Shown: piece by piece, positions 2,899 to 58,493 of the stretch
Layout of the letters: each line of letters begins with the position of its first letter
How positions within the stretch are numbered: position 1 is the stretch's first letter
DNA from: Candidatus Hydrogenedentota bacterium
Lineage (GTDB): Bacteria > Hydrogenedentota > Hydrogenedentia > Hydrogenedentales > SLHB01
Length of the DNA: 64,000 nucleotides
Direction of reading: 5' to 3'
Assembly (NCBI GenBank): GCA_029974275.1
Contig: JARKSN010000316.1
Span: 8,125-72,124, forward strand
Position numbers and translations under genes: made by a program
Notes under the pieces: model-generated
The model's database searches: none
What the model was told of the DNA's origin: nothing
What the model saw: the letters and a program-made list of their open reading frames with translations, nothing else

Positions 2899-4365
2899 CT
2901 ACCTCTTGGTTTGCGCGCGATAGGTTACCGTGGCCTCGCCGTCTTTGGGCACGGTGACGGGGAACACCGCCGTCGCGGCGTCGCGCTTACTGAACTCCTG
3001 CGATTTCTCGAGGATGCGCCAATCGCCGTACATGCGCTCGACCACGTTTACCGTGACTTCCGTGTCCTTGTGATTGCGCACGACGATTTTGAACGCGCTT
3101 TCGCTGATGTTTTGGGCGGGTTGCTGGAAATCGGTCTGCGTGCGTTCCACGGCGATATCGAAGGCTTTGCCGATGCCCAAGCGCACTTCTTCGTTCTTCG
3201 GCGTATGCCTGATCCGGTCTTCGCCCGCGAATTGCAGTGCGCCGCTGCTGTCCTGCTTGTACACGCGCATCGTGCCCGCGGGCAGCGGAATGCCCAGATG
3301 CGCCTTCTCCGCGTTCATGAACTTCAATAGCACCGCGACGTCCTGCCTGATTGGCCCGGAATCCGGACGCATGAACGGCGTGAACAGGTCTTGGTCGCTC
3401 GACGTCTCGTATTCCTTCCTAATCCCCACTTGGGCCGCCGTCAGCAGGCTGATCTGCTTTGTCTGGTTTTGCTTGATGGTCGTGCGGCGCGGCACGGTGT
3501 AGAGATGGTACTCGGCGAAACTCTCTTCGCGCGGCGGGGCAGGCGCCATCATCCCCTCTGCATACCCCAACATGTCGGCTCGGACTTTGAGCTGCTGCGA
3601 GCGCGGCGCAAGATTCACGTCGCCCGCGACCAGTTTCAGCTCCGCGTTCGTGTACTCCGTGCCCGACTGGTTCGACAGCGTCACCCACCCCGCCAGGTCC
3701 ATCGTGGCGTCGTCCTTGGCGAGGGTCAGCACATAATCGACTTGCCACGTCACGCCGTCGGTGAGATAACTCACTTCGATCTTCTGGTTCGGCAGGGCGT
3801 TGTTCACCTCCCACACCAACGTGGGCTTGGCGATGAGGTTGGCCGGTATCTCCGGCAGCACGACGTTGCCGGGATGTCCCAAATAAATCCGATCGCCAAC
3901 TTTATAGATAGGCCCTTCGTTGTTGCTCAATAGGTCGGCGTCCACTTCTTGAAAGCCGATCTGGGTGCTGAAGTTCACAAGCTTCACTTTCTTTCCAACA
4001 TATTTTTCCATGAGTTTGTTCGGGCTCATCAGGTCGTATTCGTAATTCTGTTCGAGGATTGCAATCGACCCCGGCGCATCAAGCGATCGCAGGCTTACCG
4101 TCTCGGGGCGGATTTGCTGCGAAACGTCCATAAACTGGAGTTTGTGCTCGCCCGTTGGCGCCGACAGCGTGCGCACATCACGCACCAACGCGATGCCGCT
4201 GTTGTACGCGGTGACTCCGACGTCCACCCGATCGGCGAGGGTGCTCGCCACTCCCGAAGGCGCTGTGGGCGCGGAGACGGACGGCGCGGACGCTACGGGC
4301 TCTTGAGCGCATGCCAGCGCCGCGATGAACAGAACGAGCATTGCCGTCACGAACGATGTTTTCAT
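2899..4365 (-). CDS. Secreted protein of unknown function
   Basis: A 488 aa ORF with a clear signal peptide (MKTSFVTAMLVLFIAALACAQE) and no recognizable catalytic motifs. Confidence 0.6.
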   Translation of the reverse strand: MKTSFVTAMLVLFIAALACAQEPVASAPSVSAPTAPSGVASTLADRVDVGVTAYNSGIALVRDVRTLSAPTGEHKLQFMDVSQQIRPETVSLRSLDAPGSIAILEQNYEYDLMSPNKLMEKYVGKKVKLVNFSTQIGFQEVDADLLSNNEGPIYKVGDRIYLGHPGNVVLPEIPANLIAKPTLVWEVNNALPNQKIEVSYLTDGVTWQVDYVLTLAKDDATMDLAGWVTLSNQSGTEYTNAELKLVAGDVNLAPRSQQLKVRADMLGYAEGMMAPAPPREESFAEYHLYTVPRRTTIKQNQTKQISLLTAAQVGIRKEYETSSDQDLFTPFMRPDSGPIRQDVAVLLKFMNAEKAHLGIPLPAGTMRVYKQDSSGALQFAGEDRIRHTPKNEEVRLGIGKAFDIAVERTQTDFQQPAQNISESAFKIVVRNHKDTEVTVNVVERMYGDWRILEKSQEFSKRDAATAVFPVTVPKDGEATVTYRAQTKR

Positions 4366-4481: not shown

Positions 4482-4514
4482 AAAAAAAAACGACCTGCCG
4501 CATAAAAGGGCAGG
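4482..4514 (-). terminator. Rho-independent terminator downstream of dnaA
   Basis: On the minus strand, a 6-bp stem (CCTGCC, 9-nt loop, GGCAGG; plus coordinates 4494-4514) is followed by a T9 run (plus-strand A9 at 4482-4490). This lies 24 nt below the dnaA stop. Confidence 0.6.
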
Positions 4515-4537
4515 CCGGTGGTACGTTTTGCGATGGA

Positions 4538-5923
4538 TTACGCCTGGGCGACTTTTTGAAGATGCGCCAGCACTTGTCGGGTTTCGGGATTATTGCGCGC
4601 TTTTTCGGCGATCTGCTGGCACGCGTACAGCACGGTTGTGTGGTCCTTGCCGCCGAAAGCCTCTCCAATTTCGCTTAGGGACAGATTCGGCACGAGGTCT
4701 TTGCATAAGAACATGGCGAGTTGCCTTGGGAAAGACACTTGCCGCTGGCGATTGCGGCTTTTGAGATCAGCGATGCGAAGATCGAAATACTCCGCGACGG
4801 CCCGCTGAATGTTTTCGATCGTGACAGGCTTGATTTTTTCCCGCCCGATAAGGTCGTGCAACACGTCTTCCGCAACGTGCAGGGTGATCTTGCGTTCGGT
4901 CAGTTTCGCGTACGCGAGCAGCGTGATGAGCGTGCCTTCGAGCTCGCGGATATTCGTGGCGACGTAGGTCGCGATGTAGCGGAGGACATCCGCGGGAACG
5001 ACGGCGTTTTCCTCTGCCGCCTTGTTCTGCAGGATGGCCACGCGCGTCTCGAGATCGGGGGGCTGAATATCCGTCACCAACCCCCACTCGAAGCGCGAGA
5101 GCAAGCGATCCTCCAATCCATTGATTTCCTTGGGTTGTCGATCGCTCGACAGGACGATTTGCTTATGCATGTCGAACAAGGCGTTGAACGTGTGGAAAAA
5201 TTCTTCCTGCGTGGCTTCCTTGCCCGCGATGAAATGAATGTCGTCGATCAGGAGCACGTCCACCTTGCGAAAACGCGCACGGAATTTTTGCGTCGATTTC
5301 TTCGCGATGCTTTCGATCAGTTGATTCGTGAAATCTTCCGACGAAATGAAGGCAACGCTGGCCTCGGGCCTGCGTTGAAGGACTTCTTGGCCGATGGCTT
5401 GCATCAGATGCGTCTTGCCAAGCCCGGTATCGCCGTACAGGAACAACGGGTTGTACGCGCGCGCCGGACTCTCGGCGACCGCACGCGCCGCCGCATGGGC
5501 AAAACGATTGCCCGCGCCGATGACGAAACGGTCAAAGGTGTAGCGATGATTGAATCCGTCAAAACGTTGATCCACGCGCGCCAGCGGGCGCTTGGGCGTT
5601 TGCGACCTATTGCTGGGTTTTCCTGCAGGACCGTCCTGCGGCGCAGGGGGCATGTCCGTGACTGGGCGGAAAAACACTTCGACAAAGCCGGGACTGCATT
5701 CGCGCATGCAATCGGAGATGGCCTCGATGTAATGATCGCGAAGCCAATCCGCGAAAAACTGACTCGGCACTCCTATGGTCAACGATCCGTTATCGTAGGA
5801 AACAAACCGGGTCTGAGAAAACCAATTCTTGTAGCTATGTTCATCGAGTCGTTCTTGCAAGCGGGTCTGCGCCAATTCCCAAGGATTATGTTTATCCGAT
5901 ACCATAGCCGCTCCCTGCATCAA
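4538..5923 (-). CDS. dnaA: Chromosomal replication initiator DnaA
   Basis: AAA+ Walker A in LFLYGDTGLGKTHLMQAIG, and a C-terminal DNA-binding domain (SLSEIGEAFGGKDHTTVLYACQQI). The true start is probably the internal MVSDKHNPWE. Confidence 0.97.
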   Translation of the reverse strand: MMQGAAMVSDKHNPWELAQTRLQERLDEHSYKNWFSQTRFVSYDNGSLTIGVPSQFFADWLRDHYIEAISDCMRECSPGFVEVFFRPVTDMPPAPQDGPAGKPSNRSQTPKRPLARVDQRFDGFNHRYTFDRFVIGAGNRFAHAAARAVAESPARAYNPLFLYGDTGLGKTHLMQAIGQEVLQRRPEASVAFISSEDFTNQLIESIAKKSTQKFRARFRKVDVLLIDDIHFIAGKEATQEEFFHTFNALFDMHKQIVLSSDRQPKEINGLEDRLLSRFEWGLVTDIQPPDLETRVAILQNKAAEENAVVPADVLRYIATYVATNIRELEGTLITLLAYAKLTERKITLHVAEDVLHDLIGREKIKPVTIENIQRAVAEYFDLRIADLKSRNRQRQVSFPRQLAMFLCKDLVPNLSLSEIGEAFGGKDHTTVLYACQQIAEKARNNPETRQVLAHLQKVAQA

Positions 5924-6163
5924 GCGTCTGCCTCGTCTCCGAGAAGATTAAAGAATAAGCGCAGGCTGGGCGTCTCTTCCGGACATTTCGAAAGCGAAAT
6001 GTTGCGTGCGAGCAGTCTTCCCAACCGCAATTTGAATCGCTCCCCCTGCCGGCGTTCCGTTGGTTTCTGTTCCTGCGTTACGTCTTGCATTCGTGCACAA
6101 CGCGCCGCGCACCCCACCCTTGGGAACGCCTCCAAACGCTACGCCCCCGTCGTTGCGCGAGCG

Positions 6164-6205
6164 TTATCCACACGTTATTCACAGGTTATTCACATGTTGT
6201 CCACA
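6164..6205 (+). promoter_or_regulatory. Array of four direct DnaA boxes with 11-bp phasing (candidate oriC or dnaA autoregulatory site)
   Basis: TTATCCACA (6164-6172), TTATTCACA (6175-6183), TTATTCACA (6186-6194), TTGTCCACA (6197-6205). All share one orientation, about 240 bp upstream of the dnaA start. Confidence 0.7.
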
Positions 6206-6233
6206 GGCCTATAAACAGGGCCTTTTCGCAACA

Positions 6234-6746
6234 TCAGGGGAGCGAGTTTGCCCCATCATCGGCCCCTTTGTCAAGGGGTTGATTATTCCCCGTACCGCAA
6301 AGGCCGCCGCTTCGCTTGATGCGCTGCCAGATCGCGTCTAACTCGGCAGGTTGGCAATCGGTCACAACGCGTCGCGAACCGTCGACTTCCGCCTCGAGTC
6401 GGGCAAAGCGATGCTGGAATCGTCGCGCAGCCGCGGCAAGCTCGCGTGCAGGATCGACGCCAAGAAAGCGGGCGAGGTTCACGGCCGTGAAGAGCAAGTC
6501 TCCTAATTCAGCCGCGGCCTCCTCGCGAGCAGAACGGCCAAGGGCCTCCTCAATTTCAGCGATTTCTTCGTGGATTTTCTCGGTCACGCCGGAAACATGG
6601 TCCCAATCGAATCCTGCGCGCGCCGCGTCCGCTTGAACGCGCCACGCCGTCTTGAAGGGTTCCGGCAGATCATGAGGAATGGGAACGGCGGCCCCGCACA
6701 CTGTGGGTTCTGGCAATGCGACGCCCTCCGCTTGTATGTGTCGCAC
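6234..6746 (-). CDS. MazG-family nucleotide pyrophosphohydrolase (single domain)
   Basis: FDWDHVSGVTEKIHEEIAEIEEA...ELGDLLFTAVNLARFLGVDP is the MazG EExxE/D core. The start is over-extended in the track. Confidence 0.75.
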   Translation of the reverse strand: MRHIQAEGVALPEPTVCGAAVPIPHDLPEPFKTAWRVQADAARAGFDWDHVSGVTEKIHEEIAEIEEALGRSAREEAAAELGDLLFTAVNLARFLGVDPARELAAAARRFQHRFARLEAEVDGSRRVVTDCQPAELDAIWQRIKRSGGLCGTGNNQPLDKGADDGANSLP

Positions 6747-13856: not shown

Positions 13857-14873
13857 CTACCGACACGCCGAATTAACCGCCACCATTTTACCTGATCGGG
13901 CGGATGCATACGCAGCGACCGTCACCTCGACGGCGCGCAAGCCGTCCTCGCCGGTGATGGCGGGATCTCGCCGTTCTCGCACCGCGTCAACAAAATCGCG
14001 CACCAGGCCTTGATCGCTGTCGCCGCCCCAGTATGCCCAGAAACCCTTGCCGACATCGTCGCTGTAAACGCCAATTTTCTGATTAAACGCATCCACCGCC
14101 ACGACCCCTTTTTCGGCGACGATCTCGAGGGTTACATCGCCCCAGATCGGAAAAGTGCGCGCGCGGTTCCAACTCGCGATGTGGGAGACGATGATGCCGC
14201 CTTCCATCTCGAGGTGCAGGCTTCCCGTGTCGTCTGTGCCGATGCCCTTGTGGATGACGTTGCCGCACTCGCAATAGACCTTCGTGAACTCCTTGCCGGT
14301 CATCCAACGAACCAAGTCGATCACATGCACCGTGTGGTCCATCACCGCGCCGCCGCCGGAAAGATCGGTCTTCGCGAACCAGCCGCCCGGGAACTGGCCA
14401 TGGTTCGTGCAGGACATCGCGTAGATATCGCCCAGCGCCCCAGAGGCCGTTTGCGCGCGCACGGCCTTGATCGCCGGGATGTAGCGGCAGGGGAACGCCG
14501 TGCCCAAACCAACCTTTGCCTTGCGACACGCGGCTATCATGGCTTTTGCGTCGGCTACGGTCGTCGCCAAGGGTTTCTCGCACAGCACCCACTTGCCTGC
14601 TTTTGCGGCGGCCTCGACCATCGCGCGATGGTTGACGTTTTCCGACGTGACGATCACGCCCTGCGTGTCCATCGCGAGAAACTTGTTCATGTCCTTCACG
14701 AACGGCACGCCCAACTGCTCCGCCATCGCGCGGCCACGTTTGGCGTTGTCGTCCCAGATCGCGGTCAACGCGACATCGGTCATGCCCTTCAGCGCGTGCG
14801 CATACGACCACGCATGCATATGCGCAAAGCTCATGATGCCGATTTTCATCGCGGGAATGTCTGTCATGATCAT
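13857..14873 (-). CDS. Gfo/Idh/MocA-family NAD(P)-dependent oxidoreductase
   Basis: MKIGIMSFAHMHAWSYA Rossmann N-terminus plus the GKWVLCEKPLA motif. The likely start is MIMTDIPAMKIGI. Confidence 0.85.
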   Translation of the reverse strand: MIMTDIPAMKIGIMSFAHMHAWSYAHALKGMTDVALTAIWDDNAKRGRAMAEQLGVPFVKDMNKFLAMDTQGVIVTSENVNHRAMVEAAAKAGKWVLCEKPLATTVADAKAMIAACRKAKVGLGTAFPCRYIPAIKAVRAQTASGALGDIYAMSCTNHGQFPGGWFAKTDLSGGGAVMDHTVHVIDLVRWMTGKEFTKVYCECGNVIHKGIGTDDTGSLHLEMEGGIIVSHIASWNRARTFPIWGDVTLEIVAEKGVVAVDAFNQKIGVYSDDVGKGFWAYWGGDSDQGLVRDFVDAVRERRDPAITGEDGLRAVEVTVAAYASARSGKMVAVNSACR

Positions 14874-15847
14874 AGTTTCACCACCTTGCCCGTCTTCGCC
14901 GATTCCAGTGCGCCCAGAGCCATTTTCACCGCCGCCATTCCGTCTTCCGGCGTCACGCGCGGCGTGTTCTTCCCTTCGATCCAGCCAATGAAATCGCGCC
15001 ACTCGAGTTCATAGGGGCTGACGTCCACCGGACTTTCCGGCACGATCATCGTTGCCCCCTCGCCCGGTTTCGCGCGCATCATCGTCGAGATCGGAGCCTC
15101 GTTGCTGTCGAACGACACCATGCCCTTCTCGCCGCAGACCTCCGCACGCACGCGAAAACCGCCGGGATGCGCCCATGTGCCCACCACATTCGCAATGATG
15201 CCGTTTTTCATGCGGAAGGTCGCCAGGCTATAGTCCAGCTTTTCCGGCTCGCTGCGTTGAATGGCTTGGCAGAAGACGCGATCGGGTTCGCCGAAGACAT
15301 ACCGAATCCAATCGAAATCATGGATAATCGTGTCCATGGTGACCCCGCCGCTCTGCGCATAGTCGTGGAACCAGGCCTTCTCGCCCAGCGGAAAAATGCC
15401 GCCGCGATAGGTTTTCACAAAACCGGGCTTGCCAATCACGCCCGCCTGGACCTTCTCGCGAATGGCCTCGAACTCCTGGAAATAGCGAACGACGTGTCCG
15501 ACAAACAGCTTGATTTTTGCCTTCTTGGCCGCCGCGATGGCTTCCTTGCACTCGGCGATCGTCCGGCAAAACGGCTTCTCGCAGAAAATGTTTTTCCCCG
15601 CCTGCGCCGCGGCCGCCACGAACGGAAAATGGTTGGGCGTCGACGTGCACACCGCGACGATGTCCACGTCTTTCCGCGCCGCCGCCTCGATGCCGTTCGT
15701 GGTCGCGTCCGCGCCAAATGTCGTGGCCAGCGCCTCGGCCTTGGCCGCAGCCGTATCCGCGCACACCACGACGTTCAAGCCGATCGCCCGGACGATGTGG
15801 GCGTGCATCGTTCCCATTCCTCCGCAACCAATCACCGCTACGTTCAT
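14870..15847 (-). CDS. Gfo/Idh/MocA-family oxidoreductase (second, in tandem)
   Basis: MNVAVIGCGGMGTMHA...GKNIFCEKPF. A 4-nt overlap with the downstream paralog. Confidence 0.85.
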   Translation of the reverse strand: MNVAVIGCGGMGTMHAHIVRAIGLNVVVCADTAAAKAEALATTFGADATTNGIEAAARKDVDIVAVCTSTPNHFPFVAAAAQAGKNIFCEKPFCRTIAECKEAIAAAKKAKIKLFVGHVVRYFQEFEAIREKVQAGVIGKPGFVKTYRGGIFPLGEKAWFHDYAQSGGVTMDTIIHDFDWIRYVFGEPDRVFCQAIQRSEPEKLDYSLATFRMKNGIIANVVGTWAHPGGFRVRAEVCGEKGMVSFDSNEAPISTMMRAKPGEGATMIVPESPVDVSPYELEWRDFIGWIEGKNTPRVTPEDGMAAVKMALGALESAKTGKVVKL

Positions 15848-16062
15848 GTCATCTCTCCCTGACCCGACTCGATAAACGCCTTCCGCCTCATGAATTCGTC
15901 CGGATCGTATCCTCATTTACACACTCCGATCAATCGTTTGTGTCTGGGGGCAACGAGGCGACCCTGGCAGGGACTGACCTCTCGATACCGTACCTGAAAG
16001 AGTTACATAAAGTCTTTTCGGCTGCCTTCCTGCTGTCCCTGTCTGAATGCTACAATGCGCGC

Positions 16063-17136
16063 ATGCATCTGGTTGCGCTACAGGCGTCAGGATTTCGGAG
16101 CCTGACGGGGATTGATTTCCAGCCTACTCCAGGATTGAATGTCATTCGGGGGCATAATGCCCAGGGGAAGACGTCGCTCCTGGAGGCGTTGCTGTTTTTG
16201 GCGACGTCGAAGAGTCATCGCACGAATATCGAAGCGGAATTGGTGCGGGATTCGGACGTGGGCTTCCAACTCCGGTGCCGGGTGCAGCGCTGCGACCGCG
16301 AGGTGGTCACGGAGGCGAACTGGTTCAAGGGCGTCAAACGCTTCAGGGTCAACGGCGTCTCGCAACCGCGCACGAGTGATATCCTCGGCAAGGTGAATGT
16401 CGTGTTCTTCTCGCCGGAGGACGCGGCGCTGGTGCGTGGGTCGGCGTCGAACCGGCGACGATTTCTCGATATGGAGTTGTCGCAGCTTAGTCCCGGTTAC
16501 CTCTTTGCTCTCCAGCAGTATCGGCAGGTCTTGAAACAGCGCAACGAGCTCTTGCGCGCGTTCAAACCCGATCCGGCCTTGGTCGATGTGTGGGACGATC
16601 AACTCGCGTCGCATGGCGAGGTGTTGATCCACGAGCGCATGGCGTTCGTGCGCGAACTCAGCGCGTTCGCGGCGAAGGCGTATCGGCGTATCGCGGAGAC
16701 GGAAGACCTTGAGGTGCGGTATCAGCCGGACATCCCGCTGGATTCGCCCATCATCGAGGTGCTCAATGAAGCGCGCGAGAGTGACTTGCGCAATCGCGTG
16801 ACGACGCGCGGGCCGCATCGCGACGAGATCGTCTTGTTGGCGGGGGGGCGCGCCGCACGGCAGTTCGCATCGCAAGGGCAACAGCGCACGGCGGCCTTGG
16901 CGCTGAAATTGGCGGAACTCGAACTGGTCAAGGATCGCGTCGGCGAGTATCCTGTCCTGATGCTCGACGACGTGTTGTCGGAACTCGATCTAAAACGGTG
17001 CAAACGGCTGGTCGAGGCGATTCCGCGCGAGGCGCAGTGCCTGTTGACCACGACCGACCTCGAACGCTTGGACTCGATGTTTGGCGTGCCGTGCGCGAAT
17101 TTCTTCATTCAGGGTGGACGCCTTGAAAAGAAATAG
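16063..17136 (+). CDS. recF: DNA replication and repair protein RecF
   Basis: MHLVALQASGFRSLTGIDFQPTPGLNVIRGHNAQGKTSLLEALLFL (Walker A GHNAQGKTS) and a C-terminal YPVLMLDDVLSELD signature. The ATG is at 16063; the track ORF is over-extended upstream. Confidence 0.9.
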   Translation: MHLVALQASGFRSLTGIDFQPTPGLNVIRGHNAQGKTSLLEALLFLATSKSHRTNIEAELVRDSDVGFQLRCRVQRCDREVVTEANWFKGVKRFRVNGVSQPRTSDILGKVNVVFFSPEDAALVRGSASNRRRFLDMELSQLSPGYLFALQQYRQVLKQRNELLRAFKPDPALVDVWDDQLASHGEVLIHERMAFVRELSAFAAKAYRRIAETEDLEVRYQPDIPLDSPIIEVLNEARESDLRNRVTTRGPHRDEIVLLAGGRAARQFASQGQQRTAALALKLAELELVKDRVGEYPVLMLDDVLSELDLKRCKRLVEAIPREAQCLLTTTDLERLDSMFGVPCANFFIQGGRLEKK

Positions 17137-17467
17137 AAAAAATGATCCCGTCGGCATTGGCGACATCATCGCGGGTCTCAAGAAGACGACCCCGCTGGGC
17201 AAGCAACTCGAACTGGCGCAAATCTGGGAGCGCTGGACGGAAATCGCCGGGCCGAAATTGGCGCCGCACGGGCATCCGTATACGGTCAAAAAAGGGACGC
17301 TGCATATCCATGCCAACAGCCCGGTCTGGGTGCATCGGTACGGCTACGTAAAATGGGATCTTCTCAAAAAGGTGAACCTGATGGCGGGCCACGAATTGAT
17401 CTCCGATATCTTTATTGGGCTGGCCTCGGAAGACCCCAATCCTGCACAAGATAAAGTGGACAAATGA
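17081..17467 (+). CDS. DUF721 (DciA-like) protein in the conserved position between recF and gyrB
   Basis: ELAQIWERWTEIAGPKLAPHGHPYTVKKGTLHIHANSPVWVHRYGYVKWDLLKKVN matches the DUF721 pattern. The start is uncertain; it may overlap the recF 3' end. Confidence 0.7.
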   Translation: MACRARISSFRVDALKRNRKNDPVGIGDIIAGLKKTTPLGKQLELAQIWERWTEIAGPKLAPHGHPYTVKKGTLHIHANSPVWVHRYGYVKWDLLKKVNLMAGHELISDIFIGLASEDPNPAQDKVDK

Positions 17468-17509
17468 TTTAGATGCCCCAAAATATTGCGATTCCCTCCA
17501 GGGCCGACG

Positions 17510-17538
17510 TTGTATTTGCCTTCCGAATTTGATATACT
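17510..17538 (+). promoter_or_regulatory. Sigma70-like promoter candidate for gyrB
   Basis: TTGTAT (17510-17515), a 17-nt spacer, then TATACT (17533-17538), about 57 nt upstream of the gyrB ATG in a locally AT-richer gap. Confidence 0.4.
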
Positions 17539-17573
17539 CCGCTGTTCCCAAAACCAGGCGCAACGCACGGTAG

Positions 17574-20006
<2,433 letters not shown>

Positions 20007-20020
20007 GCGGGAGGTGAGCT

Positions 20021-21016
20021 ATGACTAGCCTGCCATTGTTTGGTTCGGTCCCTGACATTCGTGATCGCTACAAGAAGAACGCAGATGTTGTATTTTTCTG
20101 CGGCGACACGAACCAGTTTCTTCGCGATCTTCCGGACAAGGAAGTCAAGCTCATCATTACGTCGCCGCCGTATAATCTGGGCAAGGCATATGAGGACAAG
20201 GTTGCGCTGCACGACTACTTGGAGTCTCAGCGAGAGACCATCGCGCAATTGCTGCGGGTACTGCGGCAAGACGGGAGTCTGTGTTGGCAGGTCGGAAATT
20301 ACGTGGACAAAGGAGAGGTCTTCCCTCTCGATATTCTGTACTACAGCATGTTCAAGGACATGGGCCTTCATTTGCGTAACAGGATTATCTGGCGGTTTGA
20401 GCATGGGCTTCATGCGTCTCTTCGTTTCTCCGGCAGGTACGAGACGATACTCTGGTTCACGAAAACGAGGCACTACACGTTCAACTTGGACTCCGTCCGT
20501 GTGCCGTCGAAGTACCCGGGCAAGCGACATTATAAGGGGCCAAACAAAGGCAAGCCGTCGTGCAATCCGATGGGAAAGAATCCCTCGGATTACTGGGAGG
20601 TTGTCAAGCAGGATTGGGAAGAAGAGGTCTGGAATATTCCGAACGTGAAATGCAACCATCCCGAGAAGACATCTCATCCTTGCCAATTCCCGGTGGAACT
20701 TGTTGAACGTTGCGTGTTGGCGCTGACCGATCCCGGTGATATTGTCCTTGATCCCTATGCGGGCGTCGGGTCGTCGCTCATCGCAGCACTGAAACATAGT
20801 CGGAAAGCATATGGCGCGGAGAAAGAAGCCGACTACGTCGCCGAAGGAGCCGCGCGGATCAAGGCGTTCTATAATGGGACACTGCGTCTGCGGGAATTGG
20901 GGAAACCCGTCTACACACCTTCCGGGCGCGAGAAAGTATCGCGTCCTCCCGAGGAGTGGGGGGAAGGGACACAAGGACGCTTGTTGGAAGAACAGGGTGA
21001 CTACGGATGCGAGTAG
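20021..21016 (+). CDS. Type II DNA methyltransferase, beta class (N4-cytosine or N6-adenine; M.BglII/M.PvuII-like)
   Basis: Motif IV IITSPPYNLGKAYED comes before motif I VLDPYAGVGSSLIAA, which is the beta-class order. A strong RBS (GGAGGTGA) sits 5 nt upstream. Local GC is about 50% against roughly 63% in the flanks. Confidence 0.85.
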   Translation: MTSLPLFGSVPDIRDRYKKNADVVFFCGDTNQFLRDLPDKEVKLIITSPPYNLGKAYEDKVALHDYLESQRETIAQLLRVLRQDGSLCWQVGNYVDKGEVFPLDILYYSMFKDMGLHLRNRIIWRFEHGLHASLRFSGRYETILWFTKTRHYTFNLDSVRVPSKYPGKRHYKGPNKGKPSCNPMGKNPSDYWEVVKQDWEEEVWNIPNVKCNHPEKTSHPCQFPVELVERCVLALTDPGDIVLDPYAGVGSSLIAALKHSRKAYGAEKEADYVAEGAARIKAFYNGTLRLRELGKPVYTPSGREKVSRPPEEWGEGTQGRLLEEQGDYGCE

Positions 21017-21567
21017 ACAAGAAGTTCAGTTTCAACGGCGGCGAGGAGTACGTTTCCACGCATTTCCCGAGTGAGTTGCGGGAAGTCATGCGTGTCATTG
21101 GCGCTGTCGACGCGGCGTTGCACAAGAACAAAGTGTCCAAAGAAAAGACAATGCCTGGACGCGTTCTGTTCAACCCGAGACAACTGAACAAGGCGTTCAA
21201 GACGAGTTTTGAAGAACGCGAATGGTCGACAACACGAGTGAAATGCCAGGACGTTGTTCTTGATAACAACGTGCATGTGCCGTTGCCCAGTGGGGCCTTT
21301 CGCGAGATGGATTTTGTGAAACACCGTTTGGGCGTTGAAGTGCAACTGGGCAAATACGCATTCATGGTATACAACGTCTGTGCCAAGATGACAATCTTTC
21401 ATAATCTCGATGTGATAGATGCGGGAATCGAGATCGTCCCGATGAAATCTTTGGCAGACGAAATGTCAACAGGCGTCTCTTATTTTGAGCAGATTGTCTG
21501 GGACCTCACACATCGTGGCGTCTCGGATATTGATATCCCGGTTCTGGTTTTGGGAATTTCTGATTAG
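21007..21567 (+). CDS. BglII-family type II restriction endonuclease
   Basis: REMDFVKHRLGVEVQLGKYAF aligns to the BglII active site (DFGKRDTLVEVQF) with identical D-x8-E-x-Q spacing. The C-terminal IPVLVLGI resembles BglII VPIRLVGL. A 10-nt overlap with the methyltransferase gene. Confidence 0.75.
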   Translation: MRVDKKFSFNGGEEYVSTHFPSELREVMRVIGAVDAALHKNKVSKEKTMPGRVLFNPRQLNKAFKTSFEEREWSTTRVKCQDVVLDNNVHVPLPSGAFREMDFVKHRLGVEVQLGKYAFMVYNVCAKMTIFHNLDVIDAGIEIVPMKSLADEMSTGVSYFEQIVWDLTHRGVSDIDIPVLVLGISD

Positions 21568-21609
21568 CTGTAAAGTTAGGGCGTTGCGTCAACGAACGTT
21601 GAGAGAGAT

Positions 21610-24165
21610 ATGGAAACACCAAACGAACGTGTAGTGCCGATTGCGATCGAGCAGGAGATGAAGACCTCGTTCATGGACTATTCCATGAGCGTGATTGTGA
21701 GCCGCGCGTTGCCGGACGTGCGCGACGGCTTGAAGCCGGTGCATCGACGCATTCTGTACACGATGCACGAGATGGGGCTGGTGCACAATCGCGGGTTTCG
21801 CAAGTCCGCGGCCATCGTCGGCGACGCGATGGGGAAATACCACCCGCACGGCGACTCGGCTATTTACGACACCCTCGTGCGCCTGGCGCAGCCATGGAAC
21901 ATGCGCTATCCGCTCGTGGACGGTCAGGGCAACTTTGGATCGGTCGACGGCGACAGCCCGGCTGCGATGCGGTACACCGAATCGCGCATGGCGGCGATCA
22001 CGTCGCAGATGCTGGCCGACATCGAAAAACAAACGGTTAACACGCAACCCAATTACGACGGGCGTCTGCAGGAACCCGTCGTGCTGCCGTCGGCCATTCC
22101 CAATCTACTGGTTAACGGCTCGTACGGCATTGCCGTGGGCATGGCGACGAGTTGCCCGCCGCACAATTTGCGCGAAGTCTGTGACGCGGTCGTGCATCTC
22201 ATTGACAATCCCAAGGCGACCGTCGCAGACATGATGCGCTTCGTCAAAGCGCCCGATTTCCCGACCGGCGGCATCATCTACGGGTGCGAAGGCTTGCCCG
22301 AGGCATACCGCACCGGACGCGGGCGCATCACCGTGCGCGCCAAGGTCGCCATTGAACACGACCAGCGCGCCAATCGGGATCGCATCATCGTCAAGGAACT
22401 GCCGTATCAGGTCAACAAGGCGCGCCTGATCGAAAACATCGCGGAGTTGGTCAACGCCAAGACGGTCGAGGGCATCACGGACTTGCGCGACGAGTCCGAC
22501 CGCGATGGGATGCGCGTCGTCATCGAAGTGCGCAAGGGCGATGAGCCTCAGGTCATCCTGAATCAGCTCTACAAACACACGCAGCTGCAAGAAAACGCGA
22601 GCATTTTGATGCTGGCGCTGGTGAACAATCAGCCGCGCGTGTTGTCGCTGCTGGAAATGGTCGGCTACTACGTCAAGCACCGCGCCGAGATCGTCCGCAA
22701 GCGCACCGAGTACGACCTGCGCCAAGCCGAGGCGCGCGCGCATATCGTCGAAGGACTGCTCAAGGCCATCGACCATATCGACGAAGTGATCGAGATCATA
22801 CGTTCGTCGGAAGACGCCGATCAGGCCCGCGTGCGATTGGGCGATCGCTTCGGTTTCACCGAGATTCAGGCCAACGCGATCCTCGCCATGCGCCTGCGCC
22901 GATTGACCGGTCTCGAACGCGAGGAGTTAGAGAAGGAATACGCCGACTTGCTCAAACAGATCGAGCACTTCCAGCGCATTCTGTCGAGCGAACGCACGAT
23001 TTTGGCCGAGGTCCGCCGCGAGATACTCGAAGTTCGGAACAAATACGGCGACGACCGCCGCACGATTATCTTGGGCGAGACCTCGGAATTCGCCATCGAA
23101 GATCTCATCGCCGACGAGAACATGGTCGTGACGGTGTCGAACCAAGGCTACATCAAGCGCGTGCCCGTCAGCACCTACCGCAAACAGCGGCGCGGCGGCA
23201 GGGGCGTTGCCGGCATGGAGACGAAGGAAGAAGACTTTGTGCGCGACCTGTTCATCGCGTCGGCGCACCAATACATGCTCTTCTTCACGAACCTCGGGCG
23301 CGTGTACTGGCGCAGGGTGCATGAATTGCCCAAGGCCAGCCGCACGGCCCGTGGTCGCGCGATCGTGAATGTGCTTGACCTCACGGGAGACGAACGCGTG
23401 ACGGCATGCTTGCCGGTGCGCGACCTCAAGGAAGAGGGCAAGTTCGTTTTCATGGTGACCGCCAACGGCACGATCAAGAAGACCGAACTCACCGCTTTCA
23501 GCAATCCGCGCGCGGCGGGCATTATCGCGATCGATCTCGACAAGGGCGACGATCTCATCGACGTGCAGATCACCTCGGGCAACGACAACATCCTGATCGC
23601 CACGTACAACGGTTTGGCGATTCGTTTTCCCGAAAAAGACGTCCGCTCCATGGGGCGCGGCGCGCGCGGCGTGATTGGCATTCGCCTGGAAAAAGGCGAT
23701 CGCGTGATCGGCGTTTCCATCGCCGAGGACGACATGACGGTTCTCAGTGTAACAGAAAGGGGCTTCGGCAAACGGACAAAGGTCGGCGAATACCGGCTGC
23801 AACACCGAGGCGGACAAGGTATCATCAACATCAAGACCAGCGACCGCAACGGCAACGTCGTGGGCATGCTCACCGTCGACGACGAAGACGAGATTGTCGT
23901 CGTCAGCACGGACGGCATCGTGATCCGCACGCCCGTCAAGGACATCCGCACGATAGGCCGCAACACGCAAGGCGTCAAGATCATGTCCCCGACCGAAGGC
24001 GCGCAGGTCAGCGCCGTCGCCCGCGCATTGGCCGAAAGCAAGGAAGAACACCTGACGGAAACCGCCGCGACCTTGGGCGAAGCGCAGCAAATTTCGCCCG
24101 GTTTGTCGACGCAAGACGATGAGAACGGTCTTTTTTCCGAAACGGACGAAGACGAAAACGCGTGA
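21610..24165 (+). CDS. gyrA: DNA gyrase subunit A
   Basis: [19 protein letters not shown]...AAMRYTE (active-site Tyr region) and C-terminal beta-pinwheel repeats. Confidence 0.97.
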
Positions 24166-24255
24166 GTCTTTTTCCCTTGCGTCCGCGCAATGTTGGACTT
24201 TGACGGACGAGGTGTGATAGTCTAATCATGTTTGGCATAGCCGAACGAAACGAGG

Positions 24256-24331
24256 GCGCTCGTAGCTCAGGGGATAGAGCACTAGCCTCCGGAGCTAGGT
24301 GTCGCAGGTTCGAATCCTGCCGAGCGCGCCA
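24256..24331 (+). tRNA. tRNA-Arg (anticodon CCG)
   Basis: A manual cloverleaf fold. The acceptor stem is GCGCTCG/CGAGCGC, the D arm GCTC-AGGGGATA-GAGC, and the anticodon stem CTAGC/GCTAG with loop CTCCGGA. The T arm is GCAGG-TTCGAAT-CCTGC, with discriminator G and an encoded CCA. It closely resembles E. coli tRNA-Arg(CCG). Confidence 0.9.
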
Positions 24332-30289: not shown

Positions 30290-33200
30290 CTACGGAGAGG
30301 AGACGCGACGGGGACGCTTGCGATCCGAGACAGCCTTGAACAATCCTTCGGAACGCGTGCAGACCCATGTGCACGAAAATGCCGCATCTCCCAAAATGTC
30401 CGCCACGTCCCTCAATGGCTTCCGGCCAAGACGCCACGCATCGTTGCTGACCGCATACATGGAATCCCCCTTTCCTCGGAGAAGTCCGTCCGCTTCCACC
30501 CGAAGAATCCCGCCGTCCGGAGCGGGCGTCTGAAACGACCACGGTTGTTTGCCGAAGCAGAGATCGATGACGGCATGGCCGACTTCACATCGAAACGAGG
30601 TTGCCTCCATCGCCGAGGTTCTCGCCCAGATCGCGGGCCGGCCATCGACATCGTCAAAAACGCGTACTCGCTCCACGCCCCGGATCCTGTTTTTCTCGTC
30701 GCCGATCACGAGCCGCGCATCCCGCAACGCCTGTTTACCATCCTCGTGCCACGGCAACAGGAGGATGCCGCCCAAAGAACCCACGGCTACGTATTCCAAA
30801 GCAGGAAGCATGGCTGCCGAAGTCAACACATCAAACGCCATCGCGCGACAATTTCCGATGTCGATCAGCGCCGCATAATCCGCTGGGGATGCCGTGAACG
30901 GCGCGGACGCGAGATCGCTCCAGGCATACCGAGGCTCCGACGACCATGCCAAGGCCGGAGCTCGCAACACGACCGTATCTCCAACGCGAAAGGCGTTCCC
31001 CGTGGTTTGGGCATCGATCTCTTCCCAAGCCAGGGGGCCGTCTTTCCACGAACTCCGATGAAACCGCCACGAAACCGTTTCGCCGGTCCCCTCCCTCTGA
31101 GCAGTGAAAAAACTTCCGAGCTCCGCTTCCCGGATGCGGTCGATGCGCCGAGGGCAGGGTTTGATGTCGCGAAGAACGAGACGATTCTCCTCGATTGCAT
31201 TCAAACACAGGAAGGAAGAACCGCCATTTTCGGGGTTTTGACTGTGGGTCGCGAGAAGCCACAGTTTCTCCTTTCCCGGAAAGGATTCCAGCGCGCATCC
31301 TGCGTCGGCAGCATCGAACACGAAGCGACCATCCGCCAGCAGGCGATCGTCGGAGATATCCGGAATTCGAGAACGGAGCAGAGGGGCATTCTTCGAAAGC
31401 AGGTCGCGCGGAATCCAGCTTTGGGTTAGTTCGAGGCGGCGTTTTCCCAACATGCCGTCGTCCTGAAACGCAACCATCAGATGCGCCACGCTGCGCAACG
31501 ACGGAGACGCGTCGATGCGTTCCAATCGCCACGGCCCTTCCATGCAAGAGACATGATACTGAGGGAATTCGGCGTCGCCGCCCACAACCACTCCCGTGCG
31601 CTTCCCATTTGCGCGGGCGACATCGCACCGTGTTTGCCCGCGCAACACGGTCAGCGTCATGGGATATTGGCCTGCCTGAGCAAGATCAACCCGCGCCAGC
31701 CCTGCCTGCGTCACCAGGACTCCGGTCCTGTTGTCGTCGAGCAATCCGATGGCATGCGTTATGTCCCACGCAAACCGATCCTCATGCCACCAATCCGGGA
31801 TCGGAAGCGGTTGCGCGCCGGTTTCCTCTGCTTCCACGCACGGCGTGAGAGACATGTCCGTTTTCGAGATGGGACGCCACACGATGTTTCCGACCTGTCC
31901 CTCGACTTGCGGCGTTTCCAGTTTTTCGCTCTGCCACGAAGCATCCGCAGCGGCGGAAGTCTGAAATGTCCATAGCCGATGCTTTTCGCGCGCCGTCAGA
32001 CGCAGCGCCGCCCCCCCGATTAAGCTCGGAACGCAATCCGAAGGCATGTCCGAAGGCGGCGCGAAGCACGCCATGATCGTTGCAGGGGATCTCGGATCGC
32101 GTTTCACGACGCATCGGCCAGGAACGAACACGTACAAACCTTCATTGAAGGAAGCGAACGATGCCCCGCGATCGAAAAAGAACCTGCTGCCGTCAAACAC
32201 GGATTTTCCGTCGAAGGCGCGAAACGACACCTTGCCTTCGCGACATGCGATCCGCAATGCGGGGGTGCTTATCTCCGATTCCGGATCGTGGGAGAGGGGC
32301 GTTTCGGATTTGTCCACTCGTTGGAACGGTCTTGCTTGCAGTCTCCAGAATCCATCTTCCGTTTCCAACGTAATAGGCCCATCCGAAACGTCGCGGCGCA
32401 GCCATGTAACGAGGTCATCTCGGAATTTCCAATTTCCAGCCGTTGTCTGCCGCCAGGAACGCGTCCGGTTCGCTTCATCAAGACGGACGATCCGCAGTTC
32501 CGTTTCCATGCCGGGACGTCGGGTCAAGCGCCACTGCCAGCCGCCGTTCTCCACGACGCTGGTTTGCGCGAGGGCATCCGGACCGGTCAGCAGGGTCAGT
32601 TGGCCATCTTGCCACAAGGCAACGAACCGGCTATTCATTTCTATGGCAACGCGCGCTGGACCTTCCAGACGAACCAGCGATCCGTTGCGGAATCGCTCAT
32701 CAACAACCTGTAACCGGAACGAGTCGGCATCGCGAACCGTCAGCCCCAGATCGGTTATCAACACAAGAGAACCGTCCGAGAGGATTTCCATATCCTTCGT
32801 GCACAAGAACGAAAACGTATCCCCCGACGAAGCCCAGACGGGCCTTTCGGCGCGCGACGCATCGCTCCATGCAATATCGAGTCCATTTTCGGGACCCGCC
32901 CGGAAATCCAGTTGTTCTCCTGCGACATCGACTCTGGCCGCCGTCTTCGTCGAAAGCGTTTCCTCAAACCGCAACGTCCCTTCGGACGCTTCCTCCACGA
33001 GGCGCGTTGTCCGGTCCGCAAACGTAAGCTGGATTCTGTCGTAGGAAAACCATTGCGCCGACACCAGGTCCTTGCCAAGCACGCGTTCTCGCCGGGTTTC
33101 CTCCAGCTCCGTCGAGTTTTTCCCCGGCATCAAGACCGCCAACTCACCTCGTTGAACCGTATATACATTGCCCGATGGCCCCAGCGCGGCGCCGTCGTAG

Positions 33201-36200
33201 ACATCTTCCTCGAACCCTCCAGGCTTGGCGTGAAGGGAGCGCCATGCGCCATGCGCGTTTCGCCAGCAGTGCGTTACGCCCTCCTCGCGAGAGACCTTGA
33301 AAACCTCCGTCTCGAGCAAGAGCCCGTCGCCCGGACGGACCATCGAAACGCCCCCCTTTTCCAGCATTTCGGCCAGCATGGCCCCAGAGACAGGCAATCG
33401 CGAGACAACCGCCCCGGAATCCGCCTGCACCGAGACAATGCCGGTTTGAGATTCGCGCTCGATGACGCCATAGGTCTGGTCTTTGGCGCGAAACCATCCA
33501 TAAAACGTGTATCCGGGAATGGGGGAAAGGAGACGTCGCAACCTGCCCTCAGCCGGATCGTACTGGGCCACGCTTCCCTGAATGTCTATGAAATAAACCT
33601 TGCCGTTGGAGCATTGCGCATATACGGTTTCTCGCGGATCGAATCCTGCCTCATCGAGCGCGCCGCCGCGCGCGTATTCGACGCAGGGAGCTGCAATGTC
33701 GCGCCATTCCATCATCGACAAGCGCCCGTCGGCGACGAACGCCATTCGGACCACGCCCCGATCATCCACCCGAATGCCGCCCTGGCGCACGTTCTCGGGG
33801 ATGGATGTCACCAAGCGTTGATGAAGGTCTTTTCCGACGAAAAGGACATCCCGATCGTCTGCAATGACCATTCCCGAGGAACTCGAAGCGCAGTGCTGCG
33901 GCGTCTGCTTCAGTTCGAGCGGCATTTCGCGCCAAGTGCCGCATGCGTGATCATAAACGCCCAGCGATGGATCGGGACCTACGAACACGACGCTGGAATC
34001 GTCTCGTTGCCAAGCGAAGATGGCTTTTTCCACGAGACGCCGCATGCCGCGGGCAGACCCAAAGCTATCCGCCTTCCATTGTGCGGAGGTTTTCCCTGAA
34101 ATCGGCGTCCAACGGACCAGAGAACCCTCGGCGTTGAGCGCCCAAACCCGCTGACCAGGAGCCTTTGAACCGGCCAGTTGCACCGCTGCCTTGCGCCCTC
34201 CAGGAATCTCGCGCCATGCGTTGTCGTATTGGTGGAACAACCGCCCGTCTTGCAGCCGGGCGAACACGATACCGGCGGCAGAGCATAAATCTGTCACCGG
34301 CGAGGGGGAAGAGCCGGATACGATTCCAAGCTGCGCATATGTCGCCGTATCGTTGTGGTAGGCGATCACGTGGCCGCCAGGGCCCGATGCAAGCATCGCG
34401 TTTTCGCCTGACGGCGCGATGGCGGTCGCACGACTCGGTTCGAAAGGAAAACCGCCCTTCCCAAATACGCCAGTGGAAATTCGGTCCGACACAAGACGCA
34501 GACAGCCGTCCTTGTATAGATAGACAAGGTCTTCGCCGGTCAAGCGAATCTGTTTCACCGTTTCCGGGCTGTCAGGGGAAGCGATCCAGCCGCGATCTTC
34601 GCCCATGTCGCCCGTATTCGAGGCATATTGGATGCACCGATCGCCCTTAAGAAAGGCCACCCGCCACCACTCCGACTTGCTTTCTCCGTCGCCCCGCACG
34701 TAAAGGCACGCATCCCCCAGAAACGAGGAAGAGGAGGCGGCGTCGGCGCCTAGGGTCGGCGCATGCCCTGTGCAAAAACGCCTAGGAAACCCGGTTTTTG
34801 GATAATCGTATCGGTAAATCTCGCCATTTTCCCCTAACCCCAAGAACACGCCATGGCACGAGACGACATGTTTGGCAGGACACTGGTTAAACGGGTCCAA
34901 CGCTCGCCAGTGGCTTTGCCGTTTTGGGTCGTATGCATAGCAATACGCCGCGCCGTTGCTATCCACCGCCAAGACCCCGTCGGGAAGGGCTTCCAATGCC
35001 CTGAATCCGCTTGCCCGCCGCCGCTCGTCAATCGTTCTATTTCCCTCCTGTCCGTGCCACAACGCCATGGATGCATCCTGATACCCGTGCGTATGGGCGT
35101 CATACAAAAACGTCCCGCGGTTCGTCGCGAAAAGCATCCCTTCGTCGACGGTTTTGATGCTCCGGACCTCCAGCGCGCCGACAGCGCCCTCGGGCTTCCA
35201 GCCGTTTCCGGACCTGATCGTCTCGTGTTGGCCTTGCGCCATGGGAGCCCTGGCCAGCCGAACCTCAAGCGCGGATCCGCCGGATGTGGCCTGATAGAGA
35301 CATAGCCCGCCGTCGGGGCTTACCGCCGCCGGCCCTGTGGCGTTCGCGTCGAGAACGACTACGTTTTTCGATAGGTCCTGATTTTCGGAAGCGTTTACAA
35401 GCAGCAATCCGGCATCCGTAGCCACCAGCGCTGCGCTCCCGTGCGACCCAGGAACCGTATCGATGGACGATATATTCGGACATGTCGCCACTCCGATGAG
35501 CCGGCGTTCTGTCGCATCGTAACGGAACAACGCGTTGGCCGTAGCCATCCACGTGGCGCTTTCATCTTGAGCCACCCGCGTGATGCTTGTCACGGCGTCG
35601 AGCTTCGGCGCTGTTTCGGGCTGATGCGTGAAATAGGGCCCCGCCCATCCCGCATCGGGATCGAAGAGCCAAGTGGAACCGTGCGAGTCTTGCGCCCATG
35701 CACTGTGTCCTTCATACGGGGCGTCGAGCTGGACAGCGGCCTGGGTATGCAGTTCGCCGCGATCCAGAAAATTCAGCGTTTGGCGATCTGCGCAACGGAC
35801 GCCTCCTTCCCGAAGCGTAAGCCAGACGCGATCGCGCGTCAGGCCGACATCCGCCATGTCAACCGCCGAGGCCTGGCCTGTTTGCCAGGAACGGTCTCGT
35901 TGCAATGTCCCATCCGAAAGAGGACTAAAGGTGTAGCGCGCCACGCCCGCGCCTCGAAGCGCCACTAGCCATCCCGACGCATCGAACGCATTGCCTTGCA
36001 CCTCCGCCTCCACGCTGCCGACAGAGGCGTGATGGCGCCAGTAGGGATTTTCAGGCGCCCCCAGCCACGAATTCATCGCTATCCCGCTTTTTCCATGCGT
36101 CGCATGGGACCGCTCGATAGCCTGTCCCGACGTCAAGACGAGAAACTCATCCGGTCCTTTGCCATTTGTGACGTCGAGCGTTGGATTTGGGATATGACGC

Positions 36201-40600: not shown

Positions 40601-40809
40601 GAATTTTCCAATGCAGATATATGAATAAAACCAATGATATGGGGTCCCCCAAAGAAGAATACATATCCCAAACTACGATGCTAGCATACGCTTCTGTTCA
40701 GGATCAATGGTGGTGGAACGCTCAGGACCATTGCCCGAGGTTTGACCCCACCGAAAAGCGCGATCGTGAGGCAGGCTTGAACGAAGGGAAAGGGGGAATG
40801 AGGGCAATC

Positions 40810-41787: not shown

Positions 41788-42034
41788 GCTACGCCTCCCC
41801 GTGCGCCGGCCGCGCCGCGATTTTGGGTTCATGCCCAAGCGTCAAGCGAGTATACATAAGAGCGGGGGGCGCAACAAAAAGAAGCATTGGCCGCCAATCG
41901 CCCCGATGGAATGGCAGCGACTCCCATCGCTCCACGACGGCACGTGATTTTCTTCGAGCGATTGTGGGAAGACGCGGGGAACGTATGCTAGACTTTTCCC
42001 CTGCGGCGCAAAGGTCGTGACGCGGGAGGATGCC

Positions 42035-57496: not shown

Positions 57497-57508
57497 TCCA
57501 CGCTCGAA

Positions 57509-58414: not shown

Positions 58415-58493
58415 GCACTTCCGCTCCTCTTTGGAGATGCTTCGCGCTGATCGCGATGACACGCATGCTGGATTTCCCATGCGCATCACTACA

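Follow-up and report, generated by a model that had tools for sequence, protein, structure and literature searches.

Four phased DnaA boxes precede dnaA in the 64-kb stretch of Candidatus Hydrogenedentota DNA that was analysed (the window), and on a modest balance of probability they are the operator through which DnaA regulates its own gene, located in the transcribed leader of the dnaA promoter, and not a replication origin. They form part of a module whose order is fixed among relatives: a mazG-like gene, TTGACA-N17/18-GCAnACT, an inverted repeat, two to six boxes directed toward dnaA, and a leader of approximately 250 nt. This module has a defined sequence anatomy and is conserved across the phylum in a fixed register, and its inverted repeat and boxes are lost together. 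From the sequence it is predicted that the promoter is active, that DnaA binds to the array, and that binding there represses dnaA.

The array and its genomic setting

Direct reading and a pattern search both place the four boxes at 6164-6205 of the plus strand, in a single orientation and with 2 bp between neighbours (Table 1). The start-to-start spacing is therefore exactly 11 bp, and the head-to-tail arrangement reported in the first-pass annotation is confirmed. The array sits 259-300 nt 5' of the dnaA ATG, and its boxes read TGTGGATAA toward dnaA. The perfect box, B4 (6164-6172), is the likely nucleation site for DnaA. Head-to-tail spacing of 11 bp supports ATP-DnaA oligomers in the oriC of E. 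coli and T. maritima (PMC10316083). An autoregulatory operator is expected to have consensus boxes in the dnaA promoter or leader, and here there are four with at most one mismatch. Moreover, the cognate DnaA would be expected to recognise TTATCCACA-type boxes, as its domain IV motifs (PRQ.AM and GG(K/R)DHTTV) align with those of E. coli DnaA and the protein matches the TIGR00362 equivalog.

Beyond the array, the minus strand carries TTGACA and CAAACT, a pair that probably forms a sigma-70-type promoter, with transcription predicted to start near 6238. The -10-like CAAACT is a poor match to TATAAT, retaining the sigma-70 A at position 2 and T at position 6. In the alignment of 43 loci, the -35 reads TTGAC(A/T), positions G29, C30, A31, A33 and T35 of the -10-like element are invariant, and pattern mapping places the -35 to -10 spacing at a fixed 17-18 bp across relatives. 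TTGAC-N17/18-GCAnAcT is found 39-53 nt 5' of the first box in approximately 40 loci, and the first good box follows the -10 after either 39-40 nt or 48-53 nt. The longer-gap class has one additional degenerate box, and thus the register between promoter and array is kept. The pattern TTGAC-N17-20-CANACT occurs once in the 64 kb and was therefore rejected as a motif shared by promoters of this genome in general. A comparable TTGACG-N17-TAATCA precedes the tRNA-Arg gene in the window. Inspection of the alignment by eye revealed no consistent match to an IHF site or to a second promoter overlapping the boxes.

The inverted repeat starts approximately 20 nt past the -10-like element and abuts the first box. 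In almost all array-bearing loci it has a GC stem of 4-7 bp and a T-rich centre (consensus gCCyTtATTTTAcaGGg); the sequence of the stem varies among loci, while its complementarity is kept. The repeat is missing wherever the boxes are missing, even where the promoter is retained. A small hairpin in the RNA is thus disfavoured, and the element is better explained as a DNA inverted repeat that would act with DnaA at the DNA level. A structured RNA in the leader/promoter region was also rejected: a search of this region against Rfam gave no match at E <= 1 (across the whole window, only the tRNA-Arg was matched), the leader folds no better than shuffled sequence (z = -0.16), and RNAalifold found no consensus structure in the 43-sequence alignment. 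The leader ranges from 170 to 415 nt among relatives and is unconserved; its GC content is 0.60 here, and it averages 0.57 in relatives against a locus background of 0.59. A Shine-Dalgarno sequence, GGGAG, is located at 5911-5915, 5 nt before the dnaA ATG.

Table 1. Features of the dnaA region and of the recF region in the window.
Feature	Position	Strand	Sequence or remarks
DUF4139 gene	2899-4365		Next gene after the dnaA terminator
Intrinsic terminator 3' of dnaA	~4482-4517	-	GC hairpin, then T9 (direct reading)
dnaA	4538-5905	-	455 aa; TIGR00362, 546 bits (cut-off 344); Pfam DnaA_N, Bac_DnaA, Bac_DnaA_C
Leader, array to dnaA start	5906-6163	-	258 nt; unconserved; background GC
DnaA box B4	6164-6172	+	TTATCCACA; perfect consensus; dnaA-proximal
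DnaA box B3	6175-6183	+	TTATTCACA; 1 mismatch
DnaA box B2	6186-6194	+	TTATTCACA; 1 mismatch
DnaA box B1	6197-6205	+	TTGTCCACA; 1 mismatch; promoter-proximal
AT-cored inverted repeat	6206-6222	.	GGCC-CTGTTTATA-GGCC on the minus strand; abuts B1
mazG-like nucleotide pyrophosphohydrolase gene	6234-6746	-	Pfam MazG, PRA-PH; single MazG domain
-10-like element	6245-6250	-	CAAACT; 18 bp after the -35; invariant core G-C-A-n-A-c-T, 6251-6245
-35 element, putative dnaA promoter	6269-6274	-	TTGACA; TTGAC invariant in 43 aligned Hydrogenedentota loci
recF	16063-17136	opposite to dnaA	
dciA	17081-17467	opposite to dnaA	

The last 13 codons of the mazG-like gene, which NCBIfam MazG models match below their cut-offs, overlap the putative dnaA promoter, and the order mazG to dnaA is retained in approximately 45 related loci. 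At the other end of dnaA, the earlier observation that a terminator follows the gene in place of dnaN also holds, as a hairpin with T9 is succeeded by the DUF4139 gene. A tblastn search, with an E. coli DnaN sequence as the query, found dnaN neither in the 64-kb window nor within 10 kb of dnaA in 63 Hydrogenedentota loci. The same search located dnaN just 3' of dnaA in 11 outgroup loci, with gyrB-gyrA then following in most. In the window, recF, dciA, gyrB and gyrA lie 10-18 kb away and are encoded on the opposite strand, with gyrB and gyrA separated by a BglII-like restriction-modification pair. Among five relatives reached via their RecF homologues, recF and dciA stay paired, with gyrB-gyrA directly after them in one and approximately 6 kb further on in another, and dnaN was found beside recF in none of the five. 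On two long contigs of relatives, recF-dciA lies approximately 67 kb and 186 kb from dnaA. The dnaA-dnaN-recF-gyrB cluster of the ancestor has therefore come apart across the phylum.

Conservation and repeated loss

The closest homologues of this DnaA have 62-76% identity and all derive from metagenome-assembled genomes, most of which are labelled Candidatus Hydrogenedentota; several are labelled otherwise (e.g., Nitrospiraceae) and are taken to be mis-binned. Arrays were counted in the 59 Hydrogenedentota loci whose sequence extends 400 nt or more upstream of dnaA. Of these, 41 have at least two boxes in an 11/22/33-bp register, eight have a single or unphased box, and ten have none. The orientation toward dnaA is shared by 117 of the 118 upstream boxes, and the spacing is exactly 11 bp in 46 of 69 cases. 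Two boxes form the modal array (28/59 loci), and the four in the window are near the upper end. Box density per locus is 1.86 in the bin from -500 to 0 and approximately 0.05 elsewhere within +-10 kb of dnaA.

That the four boxes reflect chance, or a low-complexity tandem repeat with no DnaA function, is practically negligible as an explanation. The sequence is indeed a short 11-bp tandem repeat. However, 200 first-order Markov simulations of 64 kb each yielded not one same-strand box pair at exactly 11 bp, in comparison to three consecutive pairs in the window itself, and the arrangement, orientation and position are the same in the 41 array-bearing genomes even though their flanking sequences have diverged. 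Boxes with at most one mismatch number 14 in the 64-kb window against 4.95 expected (0/100 shuffles gave 14), and nowhere else in the window do three or more boxes (at most two mismatches) fall within 150 bp.

If the array were the sole origin, then it should be retained wherever DnaA-dependent replication is retained, and this is not what was found. In twelve Hydrogenedentota loci, neither the region upstream of dnaA nor the rest of the sequenced flanks, which reach up to +-10 kb (L031, L036 and L040), contains a box array or cluster. Among these, mazG and the promoter are both kept in L040 and L051, the promoter is kept in L016 and L061, and mazG is kept in L020, L031 and L048; in these seven loci the inverted repeat and boxes were lost in place. 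The L040 and L051 lineage has array-bearing sisters in L027, L030 and L034. When mapped on a rough neighbour-joining tree of DnaA, array losses occupy five or more separate places in a phylum that otherwise has the array, and the array-less genomes retain DnaA domain IV with its DNA-contacting motifs unchanged. An operator can decay in place again and again, but a sole origin cannot. Therefore, repeated loss in place points to an operator rather than to a sole origin.

Origin hallmarks and rival readings

A cluster of DnaA boxes, as is expected of oriC, is present, though with four boxes here and two in most relatives. An origin should additionally have an adjacent AT-rich DNA unwinding element (DUE) on the appropriate side of the boxes. 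In the sequence of R1 and the 13-mers of E. coli oriC, the T-rich strand lies 5' of TGTGGATAA-reading boxes, and the unwinding side in the window is thus the promoter side. Combined with the '5'-tail' scaffolds of one report (PMC8287927) and the bottom-strand numbering of another (PMC8235120), this sequence gives the rule that the T-rich or trio strand which is unwound and bound by DnaA is the one 5' of TGTGGATAA-reading boxes. An AT-richer stretch had earlier been proposed as the unwinding element, and this proposal is rejected: the patch (AGAAGATTAAAGAATAAG, 5942-5959; 22% GC, 37-54 nt 5' of the dnaA ATG) spans just 18 bp, falls between the boxes and dnaA, which is the wrong side, and is unconserved in relatives, in which the leader is at background GC. 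On the promoter side, the sole AT feature is the 8-10 bp core of the inverted repeat, which is clamped by GC. The segment from the -10 to the boxes is on average 11 GC points below the locus background in relatives, and in this window it has 56% GC against a background of 60%. No 100-bp window between 4300 and 7200 falls below 45% GC, and the lowest-GC 40-mers of the 64-kb window are located away from the array. An adjacent AT-rich DUE is not present by these measures. The first-pass annotation had stated that the absence of further boxes or a DUE in a wider scan would reduce the array to a dnaA autoregulatory operator; neither was found, which tells against oriC.

DnaA-trios were also sought. 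Runs of at least three NAN within 0-16 bp are present in 6 of 50 loci, compared with 17% of shuffles and 7 of 50 loci on the control side, and the window has at most two such trios. The array does have the tandem DnaA boxes, 2-3 bp apart, of a basal unwinding system (BUS). Trios were not found on the TGTGGATAA strand 5' of the boxes in the number that a BUS has, and with no enrichment on the correct strand, DnaA-trios and a BUS were rejected. For the motif TT[AG]TT, 23 occurrences were counted on the strand whose polarity is E. coli-like and none on the other, a strand bias that weakly favours an origin.

A switch of strand composition or gene orientation would also be expected at an origin. 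The first-pass annotation had looked to a GC-skew switch to decide the matter, and none was found at the array within the +-10 kb around dnaA that the skew and orientation tests covered, without a positive control for skew in the phylum. Mean GC skew over the 59 loci does not change sign at the array, and the orientation-corrected difference across it is 0.001 +- 0.008, or 0.013 +- 0.010 without the nearest genes. In the 58 kb of the window to the right of the array, the corrected skew (dnaA-sense strand) is +0.017 +- 0.010, which is of the wrong sign by 1.7 standard errors. The AT-skew difference is 0.026-0.033 and fades beyond 5 kb; the conserved neighbouring genes probably account for it. 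Of the genes 5-10 kb upstream, 64-74% have the orientation of dnaA and point toward the array, and these would therefore meet forks from it head-on. Gene orientation does not switch at the array within +-10 kb. Other candidate sites did not emerge either. The best parS match near dnaA is only at chance level, with three mismatches. The window has no other box cluster, the region upstream of recF (15849-16062) has no boxes, and no DnaA-box clusters were found around recF in the five relatives. In total, the Hydrogenedentota sequence sampled around dnaA and recF amounts to approximately 1.2 Mb and contains no other DnaA-box cluster.

These results bear on the earlier suggestion that the array is the best origin candidate: it is indeed the sole box cluster in the window, but the step from there to oriC is unsupported. 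That the array and the AT-cored inverted repeat are oriC or an essential part of it, dual use as an operator included, is unlikely though by no means negligible. They would then be a compact, one-directional DnaA oligomerisation region that opens the promoter-side T-rich element, possibly aided by transcription. Consistent with this, no other DnaA-box cluster exists in the 64 kb or within +-10 kb of dnaA in 63 relatives, and the array adjoins dnaA, the dnaA-dnaN operon being typically near oriC (PMC7198777). Its direct repeats have a 2-bp interspace like those of the E. coli left DOR and an engineered T. maritima oriC (PMC10316083). The TGTGGATAA-reading boxes have the conserved AT core on their 5' side, which is where E. 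coli and BUS origins unwind, and the core lies within the segment of lowered GC; the TT[AG]TT bias runs in the same direction. Furthermore, the inverted repeat and boxes are inherited and lost as one unit, and recF, dciA, gyrB and gyrA are just approximately 10 kb off in this genome. Against an origin, however, stand the shortness and GC clamp of the core within a segment that here is barely below background, the chance level of the trios, the absence of a GC-skew switch together with the wrong sign to the right of the array, and the upstream genes pointing mostly toward it. Most relatives have two boxes only, the element would itself be transcribed within the dnaA leader, and the unit has been lost in place at at least five tree positions with flanks kept and DnaA unchanged. 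A novel type of minimal origin is rather unlikely; in it, 2-4 one-directional boxes would open a GC-clamped, 8-10 bp T-rich element within the initially transcribed region of dnaA, transcription from the promoter would replace a long DUE and trios, and array-less genomes would have relocated their origins.

The array could instead be a site for DnaA titration or nucleotide-state control, of the type of datA, DARS or the B. subtilis clusters, at which DnaA would be buffered or recycled, without control of dnaA transcription or firing of replication. Such a role would suit the array, in which weaker phased boxes adjoin a high-affinity one and which is conserved phylum-wide. Stable complexes of DnaA with intergenic sites outside the origin are reported for B. 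subtilis (PMC2533591). However, the array is always just upstream of dnaA, in a position fixed to the dnaA promoter, which suggests that it controls dnaA; this coupling makes a titration or recharging site improbable. The datA locus needs more boxes plus an IHF site; inspection of the alignment by eye gave no consistent IHF consensus. An inverted box repeat is mentioned for the DnaA-reactivating sequence of E. coli (PMC10316083), whereas here all boxes but one are direct.

An operator, the reading preferred here, accounts for the position of the array downstream of a phylum-wide promoter-like element in fixed register. The boxes point almost uniformly toward dnaA, the modal two-box array is of operator size, and it is the sole enrichment of DnaA boxes within +-10 kb of dnaA. 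The in-place losses with DnaA domain IV unchanged, and the lack of origin hallmarks (a DUE, trios beyond chance, and switches of skew and orientation), also favour an operator, and the position matches the upstream half of the two-part layout of outgroup loci. In E. coli, B. subtilis, V. harveyi, Streptomyces and mycobacteria, it is established that DnaA regulates its own synthesis via boxes at the dnaA promoter (PMC8203912). Several points weigh on the other side. The -10 element matches TATAAT poorly, phased boxes with an AT-cored element on the unwinding side also describe a DnaA oligomerisation region beside a DUE, relatives have lowered GC from the -10 to the boxes, and no other box cluster was found in the 1.2 Mb sampled. 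In addition, an upstream box cluster can serve as operator and as part of oriC at once, as in B. subtilis and Pseudomonas.

Proposed mechanism and relation to known systems

As an operator, the module might work as follows. Transcription would start near 6238 from the sigma-70-type promoter (TTGACA, 6274-6269, and CAAACT, 6250-6245, of the minus strand), and the transcript would cross the inverted repeat (approximately +16 to +32), the four boxes (approximately +33 to +74) and the 258-nt leader before reaching the dnaA ATG at 5905. DnaA would nucleate on the perfect dnaA-proximal box and, as DnaA-ATP accumulates, would spread head-to-tail over the three boxes with one mismatch; since the boxes are spaced by 2 bp, all four sites are on one face of the helix. 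The oligomer would grow toward the promoter until it abuts the inverted repeat and the initially transcribed region, where it would block promoter escape or elongation, and dnaA expression would drop when active DnaA is abundant. The inverted repeat would belong to the operator as a DNA element. The non-template strand is its T-rich one, and this strand is oriented relative to the boxes as is the DnaA-bound T-rich strand of the E. coli DUE. More speculatively, the oligomer might capture this strand as the transcription bubble passes.

A literature search found nothing on replication control in Hydrogenedentota, a phylum known here from metagenome-assembled genomes only. The analysis defines a phylum-wide regulatory module before dnaA, consisting of a promoter, an inverted repeat and phased DnaA boxes, in a phylum where the classic dnaA-dnaN-recF-gyrB cluster has been dismantled. 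It also cautions that DnaA boxes beside dnaA are insufficient for calling an origin. The array is somewhat more probably than otherwise a phylum-specific DnaA operator of an established type, with an unusually regular architecture that includes an inverted repeat. If this is true, then it would be a clean, natural phased array suited to the sensing of DnaA-ATP and placed downstream of the transcription start. In contrast, if the array is an origin, then it would be an unusually minimal, transcription-coupled oriC. The fixed geometry of the module makes either reading readily testable in vitro.

Among known systems, autoregulation at the dnaA promoter (E. coli dnaAp1/p2, with box R and ATP-DnaA boxes; PMC8203912) resembles the array in that boxes lie in the dnaA promoter or leader and that a high-affinity site is flanked by weaker ones, favouring cooperative ATP-dependent occupancy. 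Unlike in those systems, the Hydrogenedentota boxes are all direct repeats at 11 bp, lying at approximately +33 to +74 from the predicted start, a conserved AT-cored inverted repeat stands between promoter and boxes, and repression is a prediction. The E. coli left DOR (R1, R5M, tau2, I1 and I2) and the minimal oriC of T. maritima (PMC10316083) have in common with the array boxes of the same orientation with a 2-bp interspace, and a T-rich strand 5' of TGTGGATAA-reading boxes. However, the array differs from these origins in having two to four boxes and no 13-mer-like or 20-40 bp DUE, IHF site or TAG trios. Similarly, the BUS of B. subtilis (boxes 6 and 7 plus trios; PMC8287927, PMC10721633) has a tandem box pair with a 2-3 bp gap and, after it, a short GC cluster, but its trio repeat, (NAN) at least three times within 0-16 bp, has no counterpart beyond chance in the array.

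Bipartite origins offer a further comparison. The incA/incB regions of B. subtilis and oriC1 of H. pylori (PMC3479198, PMC10316083) are also clusters just upstream of dnaA that overlap its promoter. The upstream cluster of H. pylori does not unwind, and hence the origin is described as bipartite (PMC3479198). In contrast to such origins, no boxes follow dnaA in Hydrogenedentota, and a second cluster with a DUE is lacking 3' of the gene, where dnaN is gone and a terminator is present. The outgroup loci (L064-L071) keep dnaA-dnaN; boxes precede dnaA in them, and boxes of both orientations occupy the dnaA-dnaN spacer. Judged by position, the Hydrogenedentota array would correspond to the upstream half of a two-part origin, and the DUE-bearing half may have moved with dnaN, as in cyanobacteria. 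In S. elongatus, dnaA and dnaN are separated and oriC is next to dnaN (PMC7198777). Hydrogenedentota likewise have dnaA and dnaN unlinked, and S. elongatus may thus provide a precedent for an origin that stays with dnaN while dnaA retains its own regulation.

DnaA-box-like sequence and contig ends at related dnaA loci

A DnaA-box-like 9-mer, TTTTCCACA, is present within the dnaA coding sequence of the window, and in many relatives it is repeated at equivalent positions (+690..+760). Across the dnaA loci, 13 DnaA-box-like matches fall in the +500..+1000 bin. The recurrence of the 9-mer inside dnaA is probably a side effect of a conserved peptide.

Five of the contigs from metagenome-assembled genomes (MAGs) that carry related dnaA loci stop within the dnaA leader, just downstream of the expected position of the box array. 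Those of L010, L052, and L054 begin 128-143 nt upstream of dnaA, and those of L001 and L045 begin ~288 nt upstream; three of the five come from the same study. Possibly the assembly broke there because an element is repeated or its coverage is discontinuous. Additionally, some dnaA loci clearly of the Hydrogenedentota type have been deposited under foreign taxon labels (Bathyarchaeia archaeon, Nitrospiraceae, and FCB group), including L040 (DATKVG010000071.1) and several loci labelled Nitrospiraceae or Nitrospirales. The contigs concerned are likely to be mis-binned or mislabelled.

In a clade without a DnaA-box array or cluster upstream of dnaA (L012, L015, and L021), a conserved non-coding stretch occupies the place of the mazG-like gene, ~500-620 nt upstream of dnaA, with the pattern …GGGCAACCGGAGAAAATTTCT…CTTGCGC…N…TATACTGG…. 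This stretch looks like a promoter and a conserved transcript, and it matched no Rfam family at gathering score.

AT-richness and large ORFs of the window

The AT-richness maximum of the window (25% GC over 40 bp, 40599-40640) is located in the spacer of two minus-strand genes, 38939-40600 and 40810-41838, and is distant from every DnaA box cluster. A giant ORF of 2241 aa had zero Pfam matches at E <= 1e-5, and further large ORFs of the window are also without a Pfam family (38007-38930, 38939-40600, 45273-46841, 56666-58045, and 58245-59309).

The recF region

The recF mRNA appears to be leaderless or almost leaderless (16040-16066); an extended -10 (TGCTACAAT) lies upstream of the gene, and its end is ~7 nt from the ATG at 16063. 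The NCBI protein cluster length for RecF of the window is 398 aa, which implies a start called upstream, running into the neighbouring oxidoreductase gene. The two GFO/IDH/MocA-family gene calls there overlap each other. A long plus-strand ORF (15517-17136) that joins the antisense of these genes to recF is spurious.

Features of the window
Feature	Position	Strand	Remark
DnaA-box-like 9-mer	5191-5199	minus	within dnaA
GFO/IDH/MocA-family oxidoreductase	13857-15002	minus	neighbours the next
GFO/IDH/MocA-family oxidoreductase	14870-15916	minus	
dciA	17081-17467		PF05258
N6/N4 methyltransferase	20021-21016		part of BglII-like pair
BglII-type endonuclease	21007-21567		part of BglII-like pair
Giant ORF	30290-37015	minus	

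From 16063 to 24331, recF, dciA, gyrB, gyrA, and tRNA-Arg stand in a consecutive row, in which gyrB and gyrA are split by an inserted BglII-like restriction-modification pair. Among relatives, the conserved core of this region is recF-dciA.
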